Origin: a virus
Direction: 5' to 3' (one strand)
Virus record (IMG/VR): IMGVR_UViG_3300031952_000005
Span: 41,465-105,464 of that record
DNA length: 64,000 nucleotides
Shown: positions 41,332 through 59,612 of the stretch, one piece after another
How positions within the stretch are numbered: the stretch's first letter is position 1
Layout of the letters: each line of letters opens with the position of its first letter
The notes under the pieces: model-generated
What the model was told of the DNA's origin: nothing
Database searches by the model: none
Seen by the model: the letters and a program-made list of their open reading frames with translations, nothing else
Position numbers and translations under genes: made by a program

Positions 41332-41997
41332 TTATGGTATAGGATTAGTTGTTAATATACTATTTAAACTTGAAGATGGTGACTGACCACATTTGTATAT
41401 AGAAGATATGTGAAGTACATATTCTTCATCTTGTACTATATTTGGACTTGTTATATTTAAAGTATTTGGTGTACCATCTACTTCAAGAGTTGATTTTGAA
41501 TAAATAGGATAACTAAAAGTAGTATCTGCAAGTGTGTAAACATTAATACTATATCCTGTAGGAGATTGTATATCAGGAACACTTGATTTACTCCAAGAAA
41601 TATCAGCTGATGTAGTTCCAATTGTATCAACAGTTAAATTTTCTGGAGCTAATAACACACATGCAATAAGACTTCCACTATTTGTGACTTCTATAATCTT
41701 GTTTCTCATGTCTGCTATTGTTACCCATAAATTTGTTATAGAGTCACCTATATTATTTACACTAGTTAACCATCTTGGTAATGCACTCATCGGGGATGAA
41801 GTATTCATTAACTGTGGTAAGTTAGATAAGTTAGGTATCTGTGCAGTTATGCCATTAAATAATGAAGTAGTAGTTCCTATTGCAGATGTTAAATTACAAT
41901 AGTTTCTTTCAAATGTAAAAAATGCATTTTGTATTAGTACTTCTTGTCCAGGTGTACCACTTGATGCACATTGAGATATAATGTAAATATTATCCAT
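41332..41997 (-). CDS. Structural protein with C-terminal FN3-like domain
   Basis: LAPENLTVDTIGTTSADISW...GYSINVY...EEYVLHI. ATG at 41997 avoids a 60-bp overlap with the upstream gene. Confidence 0.6.
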   Translation of the reverse strand: MDNIYIISQCASSGTPGQEVLIQNAFFTFERNYCNLTSAIGTTTSLFNGITAQIPNLSNLPQLMNTSSPMSALPRWLTSVNNIGDSITNLWVTIADMRNKIIEVTNSGSLIACVLLAPENLTVDTIGTTSADISWSKSSVPDIQSPTGYSINVYTLADTTFSYPIYSKSTLEVDGTPNTLNITSPNIVQDEEYVLHISSIYKCGQSPSSSLNSILTTNPIP

Positions 41998-58567: not shown

Positions 58568-58633
58568 TTCTTCTTCTAATGTTTGTTATTTCATACATAA
58601 ATGTATGATTTTGTACAATATACTGTACATTTG

Positions 58634-59070
58634 TGGAGGTGAGGGGAGTCGAACCCCTGTCCAAATCATGCTTCAATAATACAATTTATACAGCTTTTAG
58701 GTAATCAACTTAGTTGACGACTCCACCACTCTGTTTAATCTAACAGAGAAATCTTAAATCTTTCTTACAGCGCTCCTAAAGAATTACCTCATGGTCTGTC
58801 ATCTGTTAAGATTCAGGGTTTCTGAGAAAGATTAATTTGCGACTACTATAAACCCTTTTTCGTCAGTTAATTTAGGCTGCTATACCAGTGTAAGACTCCT
58901 CATTTAATAATGAGAATACTTTGTTCATGTTAGCTTCTACTTGTGCGTTGTCTCCTTGAGATACTACACTTAAATTTGCATTGCCATTTAATTAAATTCA
59001 CCTTAGTTTACAGTTATCTCTCTGGCTGATTGTACTACTTACTAATAACCTGTCAAAACCAGTCACCCCC
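58634..59070 (-). ncRNA. ssrA: tmRNA (437 nt)
   Basis: 5' GGGGGUGACUGGUUUUGACAGG and 3' GGACAGGGGUUCGACUCCCCUCACCUCCA; acceptor stem with G3-U70; helix-2 pairing AGUAGUACAAU/AUUGUAUUAUU; tag ORF 58872-58985 ending IAA-stop. Confidence 0.95.
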
Positions 59071-59078
59071 AGTATTAG

Positions 59079-59150
59079 TAGCGTGTTGTGGATTCGAACC
59101 ACCCCGTAGAGTTTATGAGACTCCAATGCAACCAGTTACACCTTCACGCA
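59079..59150 (-). tRNA. tRNA with CAU anticodon (Met/fMet-like)
   Basis: Anticodon arm GGAGU-CUCAUAA-ACUCU; T loop UUCGAAU; acceptor GCGUG/CACGC. Confidence 0.85.
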
Positions 59151-59166
59151 ATGTAACAGTTGTTTA

Positions 59167-59314
59167 TGGCACAACTGACTAAGCCTTCAGTAACTTTTGA
59201 ATACCCCCAGAGTTACAAACTGTGCCAACCTACGATTTGGAGGACCTCCACGCCAACACTAAAAAGTGCTTGTAATTCCTATCTTCGATACTTGCCAGTG
59301 CACTGTCAGAGGTC
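59167..59314 (-). ncRNA. Putative structured RNA upstream of the tRNA
   Basis: Relatively GC-rich intergenic segment with closing stems GACCUCU/GGAGGUC and UGGCACAG/UUGUGCCA, each enclosing hairpins. Confidence 0.4.
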
Positions 59315-59324
59315 TAAATACTTT

Positions 59325-59612
59325 TTACCAAACAATTGCAACATCTCCTTCAGAGATCATCATTCTTAATGCACCACCTACCTCAAGAACTTCTGCTTGT
59401 TGTAAACCATGTGTAGGAACATATACCTTGTCGCCTACAGCAACTTCTTCTACATCCTCTCCAATAGCATACACGTCAAGTGCAGTCCATCGTTTCATTG
59501 CATCAGCATCTAGTGATGCTTCTGTTTCTGCAGACAATTCAAGTGCACTTTCTTTTTTTACAGGTTTTGTAATTAAAATCCTTCTTCCTCTTAGTTTTTT
59601 GTAATCTGACAT
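59325..59612 (-). CDS. groES: GroES-like co-chaperonin
   Basis: LRGRRILI...VYAIGEDVEEVAVGDKVYV...ISEGDVAIVW; 95 aa. Confidence 0.75.
   Translation of the reverse strand: MSDYKKLRGRRILITKPVKKESALELSAETEASLDADAMKRWTALDVYAIGEDVEEVAVGDKVYVPTHGLQQAEVLEVGGALRMMISEGDVAIVW

Follow-up and report, generated by a model that had tools for sequence, protein, structure and literature searches.

The window examined here, a stretch of 64,000 nucleotides, corresponds to positions 41,465 to 105,464 of the IMG/VR virus record IMGVR_UViG_3300031952_000005, which has a total length of 105,464 bp and an estimated completeness of 87%. The record codes for a portal protein, a large terminase and a major head protein along with several giant ORFs, and its portal, terminase and DNA polymerase show 22-33% amino-acid identity to their counterparts in FpV4 and the crAss-like phage phi14:2, which indicates a distant kinship. 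Neither an integrase nor a resolvase is present anywhere in the record, and RtcB and ClpP were likewise not found in it. In the window, ARAGORN calls a pair of minus-strand RNA genes, namely a tmRNA, which it places at 58633-59070, and a tRNA-Met (CAU) that scores 25.5 bits against the Rfam tRNA model and thus falls below the gathering score of 29.

An earlier reading of the same DNA from its sequence only had named the first of these a phage tmRNA, and this identification stands: the gene, which lies in a virus record and is called by ARAGORN, matches RF00023 with 71.3 bits (gathering score 47) over the full length of the model (Table 1). Its RNA has the hallmarks of the tRNA-like domain, namely a 7-bp acceptor stem, the G3:U70 pair, a T arm and a discriminator A. 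The acceptor pairing with U opposite G3 is kept in all 39 of the extracted full-length relatives, and the CCA is not encoded at the 3′ end, where CAA comes next. The pseudoknot-1 (PK1) region displays a signature sequence of its lineage, and the region of pseudoknots 2-4 aligns to the Rfam model with low posterior probability and many non-canonical pairs. The tmRNAs of the family range from 301 to 469 nt, and relative to its compact members (301-325 nt) the window's gene contains some 115 nt of inserted sequence immediately behind the tag stop, the start of which is common to phi14:2 and one IMG/VR contig (L007). As the sequence-only reading had also observed, no smpB gene is recognizable in the window, and we find none in the entire 105,464-bp record either. 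Since SmpB is present in 30 of 31 Flavobacteriales genomes, the SmpB used by this tmRNA must come from the host.

Table 1. Features of the tmRNA locus, with positions counted from the first nucleotide of the window.
Feature	Position	Strand	Basis
Complete one-piece tmRNA gene, 440 nt	58631..59070	-	Rfam RF00023, 71.3 bits, E 9.6e-26, model 1-374
Acceptor stem, 5′ strand, including G3 of the G3:U70 alanine identity pair	59064..59070	-	Sequence reading
Pseudoknot-1 region with lineage signature sequence	58997..59024	-	Aligned to the RF00023 PK1 columns; exact pattern match
Resume context UUAAAU and resume codon GGC (Gly)	58983..58991	-	Rfam sets the model's resume codon here
Tag template, 37 sense codons and TAA	58872..58985	-	Translation; frame conserved in relatives
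Conserved core codons, residues 15-27, Gln to Leu-Leu	58905..58943	-	Invariant residues; dN/dS 0.20
RNA hairpin, Phe-Ser codons paired with Asn-Glu-Glu codons	58895..58917	-	Rfam aligns it as helix 5
C-terminal Ile-Ala-Ala codons and stop	58872..58883	-	dN/dS of the last three codons 0.22
Insertion of ~115 nt directly after the tag stop	58755-58871, approximate	-	Comparison with compact members (301-325 nt)
ARAGORN's alternative 10-residue 'tag' ORF, rejected	58832..58864	-	Lies in the insertion downstream of the real stop
T arm (GGUUCGA-type loop), acceptor 3′ strand and discriminator A	58634..58658	-	Rfam alignment, posterior probability near 1
tRNA-Met (CAU)	59078..59150	-	ARAGORN; 7 nt upstream of the tmRNA; only tRNA of the record

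In a BLAST search against phage records, matches to the 5′ third of the RNA, which takes in most of the tag template, came from three groups: 29 records of Flavobacterium psychrophilum phages (the FpV4 group), the Cellulophaga phages Calle_1 and phi40:1 of the Pervagoviridae, and phi14:2 of the Crassvirales. Full tmRNAs are detected with the Rfam model in FpV4, Calle_1 and phi40:1 at 58-88 bits, and that of phi14:2 is called by ARAGORN, which misses the one in FpV4. Existing annotations give a tmRNA in Calle_1 only, with shifted coordinates, and none in the FpV4, phi40:1 and phi14:2 records. These tmRNAs share with that of the window the PK1 signature, the frame and the conserved tag core discussed below, their tags being 30-38 residues long. 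The window's version differs from those of the cultured phages in the above-mentioned insertion and in the linker just before its final Ile-Ala-Ala, which is unique to the window within the family. The annotated tmRNA of the gut crAss-like phage cr124_1 (L178) is permuted, has a 13-residue tag and belongs to a different family, and no tmRNA was found near the match in cr128_1.

At least 120 viral contigs of IMG/VR contain the exact PK1 pattern, as compared to a single contig in a collection of 185,579 species genomes, which is binned into a Flavobacteriales MAG. Across all of its 4,939 bp, this sole 'bacterial' contig has 100% identity with a viral contig of IMG/VR. A relaxed version of the pattern yielded one extra match in the genomes, a chance occurrence inside a 668-residue ORF of a GC-rich MAG. 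A six-frame search of 401 Flavobacteriales genomes with a profile of the tag returned that same contig (E 7e-10), with everything else at E >= 0.005. Thus, as the only cellular contig retrieved by either search is identical to a viral one, the tmRNA lineage is restricted to viral DNA in the collections searched, with its relatives all gathered by the exact PK1 pattern, such that the sampled family may be narrower than the real one.

Within this family, phages with portal and terminase proteins of 21-24% identity still have 76-94% identity in the 5′ part of the tmRNA, and the modules of the tag are shuffled among variants. This similarity of the RNA despite the diverged portal and terminase, taken together with the shuffled modules, fits a scenario of horizontal exchange of a self-sufficient RNA gene. 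Some tags are mosaics with the same C-terminal module behind different N-terminal modules, and others show the reverse (L014, L029, L060, L074, L096 and others), a pattern suggestive of co-infecting phages recombining inside the tag template. One divergent member (L038, L110) has a 49-residue tag without the Ala-Asn-Met motif, retaining only Met-Val-Val-His of the core along with the Ala-Ala end, and may be a frameshifted or decaying copy.

Translation from GGC at 58983-58985 to TAA at 58872-58874 yields, residue for residue, the 37-residue peptide of the sequence-only reading. The GGC sits 11 nt downstream of the PK1 signature. For comparison, we took ten host tmRNAs from members of the family to which the Flavobacteriales MAG belongs. 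In most of these, UAAAU or UAAUU immediately precedes the GGC resume codon, and the phage family uses this context too, which the sequence-only reading had described as being of the Bacteroidota type. In the E. coli tmRNA, the frame is set by U at -5 and A at -4, corresponding to U85 and A86 (PMC2481249). Across the 86 unique tag sequences of the family, U is found at -5 in 85 and A at -4 in all 86. An open frame ending in a stop is seen in 124 of 127 loci, the remaining three ending before any stop. With the first Gly or Asp codon behind the conserved context taken as the start of each family tag, eight different spacings of 15 to 51 nt separate the resume codon from the core, every one of them divisible by three (85/85), and the remaining two reading frames carry stops in 85 of the 86 relatives. 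On the basis of these 85 relatives, we infer that translation resumes at the GGC beginning at 58985. At the other end of the frame, 79 of the 86 relatives terminate in Ala-Ala, and hence the degron end is indeed kept, as had been claimed.

The 83 distinct tags of the family have 24-49 residues with a mode of 35. The tags of the ten Flavobacteriales host tmRNAs are, in contrast, of the Gly-Glu-Asn-Asn-Tyr-Ala-Leu-Ala-Ala type with 8-9 residues. The description of the window's tag as exceptionally long thus holds against those of the hosts, but not inside its own family, where 37 residues is ordinary. At the heart of the tag is a core with an invariant Gln, an invariant Ala-Asn-Met and an invariant Val, followed by Phe/His/Tyr, Ser/Asn and two Leu/Ile positions, which is carried by 85 of the 86 unique tag sequences. 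The codons used for these residues vary, Ala being encoded by four, Asn by two, Val by three and the Leu/Ile positions by six, and the summed entropy by codon position is 42.9 at the third as compared to 28.3 and 28.9 at the first and second positions. Pooled Nei-Gojobori estimates of dN/dS are 0.20 for the core and 0.22 for the last three residues, as opposed to 0.95 for the linker between them, which varies from 7 to 26 residues in the family, while the N-terminal part is weakly constrained at 0.64. Purifying selection therefore acts on the peptide, in both the core and the last three residues, and the extension, for which the sequence-only reading had suggested just this dN/dS measurement and had named a lack of conservation as a refutation, is conserved. 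Given these regional values, the tag is best described, as far as sequence comparison goes, as a pair of constrained peptide modules with a neutral linker between them.

With the tag alignment as input, AlphaFold2 predicts a single helix spanning residues 10-34, with a pLDDT of 83 over residues 11-30, and disordered ends. The tag has a net charge of -3, and its hydrophobic moment of 0.25-0.38 corresponds to moderate amphipathicity. The segment that had been singled out as amphipathic is the conserved core under purifying selection, predicted to be helical, with amphipathicity being moderate. Membrane targeting by the helix appears unlikely in light of the acidic charge and the modest hydrophobic moment.

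The same stretch of the template is also constrained at the RNA level. In the relatives, RNAfold predicts a hairpin of 6-8 bp in which the Phe-Ser codons pair with the Asn/Arg/Gly-Glu-Glu codons, and compensatory changes are seen in it. The eleven codons after the Met fold more stably than their synonymous recodings (mean z -1.31), as opposed to the N-terminal part of the template, which shows no excess structure (z -0.12). Hence, the core region is, as judged from these comparisons, dual-coded for a peptide and an RNA hairpin, and its conservation is not all at the level of the peptide, as the hairpin also holds the Phe-Ser and Glu-Glu codons. However, the invariance of Gln, Ala-Asn-Met and Val is not accounted for by the hairpin, and neither is the Leu/Ile pair, whose codons lie in the hairpin loop.

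The choice of the frame bears on how much of the tag is translated, and here the automated calls diverge from the above reading. ARAGORN detects the gene in 77 of the 127 loci and misses it in 50. In 75 of those 77 it reports the long frame with its stop, starting at the identical codon in 10 and at a later in-frame codon in 65, and in the window alone it picks a different ORF. With its tag truncated or misplaced in 67 of the 77 detected loci, and with so many genes missed, annotations of these phages are wrong or empty. One could take the 65 later starts, along with the weak constraint on the N-terminal part, to mean that translation resumes at a later in-frame codon, adding the last 10-26 residues and leaving the N-terminal part as untranslated RNA. 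We regard this as improbable because the U(-5)/A(-4) context, identical to that of the hosts, precedes the first Gly or Asp codon in 85-86 of the 86 sequences, the spacing between that codon and the core is preserved in multiples of three with no stop, and the N-terminal codons vary at their third positions in a synonymous pattern. Moreover, the core is still contained in most of the tags that ARAGORN begins further on, and almost any later start in this frame would take it in. A short tag from resumption near the 3′ end, which the sequence-only reading had named as a way in which it could fail, is at odds with this conserved first-codon context and frame, and the comparison of ARAGORN calls with phage tmRNAs that it had proposed singles out the long frame as the conserved one. 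We can give hardly any credence to the notion that the 10-residue ORF called by ARAGORN in the window (58832-58864) is the real tag and that the long frame goes untranslated. The six bases preceding this ORF also have U at -5 and A at -4, but its start motif is found in just 3 of 88 distinct relatives, in which the alternative start leads to peptides that have unrelated ends and lengths of 10, 15 and 24 residues. It is also situated within the insertion missing from the compact family members, Rfam aligns the resume codon to 58985 instead, and the peptide-level selection is on the long frame. Because of the rarity of the motif and the unrelated peptide ends, the call in the window is, on this comparison, an artefact.

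Granting that the long frame is translated, its conservation could still have causes other than recognition of the peptide. One is that the middle of the frame is held by RNA structure or contacts, as an equivalent of helix 5 or a site for binding the ribosome or S1, with the long tag as a by-product. The hairpin with its compensatory changes from the Phe-Ser to the Glu-Glu codons, its stability over synonymous recodings (z -1.3) and the Rfam alignment as helix 5 all speak for such a role. Yet the codons for the invariant Gln, Ala, Asn, Met and Val are located beyond the hairpin or at its edge, the third positions of the invariant codons are free (four codons for Ala, two for Asn, three for Val), the Leu/Ile codons of the loop switch among six synonymous or conservative codons, and the N-terminal half of the template has no excess structure, all of which leaves RNA structure an unlikely sole cause. 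Similarly doubtful is the idea that the length of the tag matters rather than its sequence. The ribosomal exit tunnel holds about 35 residues, close to the modal tag length, so a tag of this size could fill the tunnel and bring the truncated protein outside before release, with the core as an inert helix; the neutral evolution of the linker agrees with this. Against it, tag lengths in the family are spread from 24 to 49 residues, and a generic helix needs no invariant polar Gln and Asn or invariant Met. Finally, readings of phage tmRNAs that do without ribosome rescue have been offered in the literature (PMC11590407; PMC4131195): the gene may be a remnant of an integration site, a compensating copy, or a decoy that titrates host SmpB, the last having been proposed for the RNA of mycobacteriophage DS6A, which consists of a tRNA-like domain only. 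We consider any of these very unlikely for the present gene, as the RNA is complete and far from the host tmRNAs (58-88 versus 110-145 bits), and its tag frame is under a purifying selection that a decoy or remnant has no need for. Its record encodes neither integrase nor resolvase, and the integration-site version is accordingly rejected.

Placed among known tmRNAs, the window's RNA resembles the host SsrA of Flavobacteriales (RF00023) in its overall architecture, the G3:U70 pair, the T arm, the position of PK1, the resume context and the hydrophobic Ala-Ala end of the tag. It departs from the host version in tag length (37 residues here and 24-49 in the phage family, as against 8-9) and in the PK1 sequence, which is the family's own, and has the lower Rfam scores given above. 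It also differs in belonging to a virus-only family that adds a conserved core absent from host tags. A ssrA tag well over the usual 10 residues has a parallel in Mycoplasma, whose 27-residue tag has been termed an 'unusual long' one and is read by Lon and not by ClpXP (PMC8403727). There is, however, no sequence likeness between the two, and unlike Mycoplasmas, which are without ClpXP, the Flavobacteriales have ClpX, its zinc finger being detected in 60 of 61 genomes, which speaks against a Lon-directed tag of the Mycoplasma type. Further, the long viral tag would coexist with a short host tag in the same cell. The ssrA tags of E. coli and Caulobacter offer a different comparison in that they are bipartite, with an upstream site for the adaptor SspB and a C-terminal Ala-Ala that is read by ClpX (PMC8403727). 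The logic of two determinants is shared, but the upstream element of the phage tag is a predicted helix of 13 residues with a variable linker of 7-26 residues between it and the end, in contrast to a contiguous tag of 11-14 residues. SspB (PF04386) itself was found in 0 of 61 Flavobacteriales genomes, with the E. coli and Caulobacter controls being positive, which speaks against an SspB-assisted tag. Among phages, the mycobacteriophages of the Bxz1 group and Bacillus phage G also carry ssrA without a phage smpB (PMC4131195). Along with DS6A, these differ in having hosts of other phyla and tmRNAs of another lineage, and no conserved long-tag core is described for any of the three in the literature we searched.

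If the core of the tag is a recognition element, its reader could be sought either in the phages or in their hosts. On the phage side, no ORF of the record is matched in all three of FpV4, Calle_1 and phi14:2, and among 83 dereplicated loci, any one neighboring protein family recurs in 16 at most. GroEL is encoded by both Calle_1 and phi14:2, the former also having Cpn10, RtcB and 20 tRNAs (L162-L165). As a shared partner of the tag it was rejected, since no ORF of the window's record matches either GroEL and the annotation of FpV4 lists no chaperonin. Taken together, the want of a common phage protein gene, the presence of SmpB and ClpX in hosts that are without SspB, and the horizontal exchange of the RNA indicate that the reader of the core, if any, is probably host-encoded. 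The adaptor-binding or rerouting signal suggested by the sequence-only reading is thus at most a hypothesis, and its example of tRNA- or mRNA-cleaving defence found no support, the record having neither RtcB, ClpP nor SmpB. A look-up of the tag in the ESM Atlas gave no usable match. In the host genomes, the cytoplasmic helix of a protein of the MotA/TolQ/ExbB family (L168:1126-1863 (+)), orthologs of which are present in other Flavobacteriales genomes, matches 9 of 12 residues of the tag core of Calle_1. Mimicry of a host protein was nonetheless rejected, as the recurrent ExbB/TolQ-family helix has 18.5 bits and E 0.005 per genome, which is about the level of chance over 401 genomes.

Bringing these strands together, we favor, with somewhat better than even confidence, the view that the gene specifies a working tmRNA of a virulent, distantly crAss-like phage of Flavobacteriales-type hosts, belonging to a virus-only lineage whose long bipartite tag has a reader in the host. 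During infection, the phage tmRNA would be charged with alanine, and host SmpB would bring it to ribosomes stuck on broken messages. Translation would then resume at the GGC (58985), appending the 37-residue tag with its four parts: a variable N-terminal spacer; the strongly conserved, predicted helix-forming and mildly acidic core; a freely evolving linker; and the canonical hydrophobic Ala-Ala end. The last would present the kind of signal that is read by ClpXP, of which ClpX is present in the hosts. The core would serve as a second, separate recognition element that most likely docks to a host adaptor, another protease or a chaperone, such that the products rescued in infected cells would be handled unlike those bearing the 9-residue tag of the host. 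In this way, the phages would probably change the fate of unfinished proteins. We put forward more tentatively, as a possibility that we would not yet wager on, the stronger version in which the core docks to some host factor apart from ClpX, and unrelated phages of Flavobacteria, by way of the horizontally exchanged tmRNA, reprogram how the host handles the products of stalled ribosomes. If true, this would mean that a non-coding RNA gene suffices on its own for viruses to take over protein quality control.

tmRNA tags are generally seen as short degradation signals. The present viral lineage retains a tag three to five times as long as that of its hosts. Purifying selection on the core of this tag is on a par with that on its degradation end, and no viral protein partner was found. 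This points either to a Bacteroidota reader of tagged proteins that has gone unrecognized or to a redirection of incomplete proteins by the viruses. As the gene is carried by three cultured phage-host pairings, namely FpV4 with Flavobacterium psychrophilum, phi14:2 and phi40:1 with Cellulophaga baltica, and Calle_1 with a Cellulophaga sp., these proposals are directly testable.

Papers dealing with these phages count the tmRNA and say nothing more of it (PMC8776804), and elsewhere the tmRNA of phages is treated as an issue of attachment sites (PMC11590407). The phage tmRNAs of a 2014 survey come only from mycobacteriophages and Bacillus phage G (PMC4131195). A database paper of 2025 gives a modal tag length of 10 residues and does not discuss long phage tags (PMC11915505), and our full-text literature searches on phage tmRNA tags returned nothing on a virus-only long-tag family.

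Some further features of the record deserve mention. The tRNA-Met next to the tmRNA is probably co-transcribed with it. A conserved linkage of the two was rejected, as direct adjacency is seen in 1 of 80 loci, i.e., in this genome only. tRNA-Met is nevertheless the commonest tRNA within 1.5-1.9 kb of the family's tmRNAs (11 found). The minus-strand segment at 59151-59330 beside the tRNA folds no more stably than its shuffled versions (z +1.10), and an Rfam search of it down to E 1 gives noise and no family match. Outside the window, the record codes for a calcineurin-like phosphoesterase (G000:C1:22775-23572) that is 55% identical to the copy at ~54.5 kb in Calle_1. This far exceeds the 21-33% identity of the core genes held in common with FpV4 and phi14:2. 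The phosphoesterase is the sole gene that the record has in common with the otherwise unrelated Calle_1, and we see in it a probable horizontal transfer between the window's phage and Calle_1.
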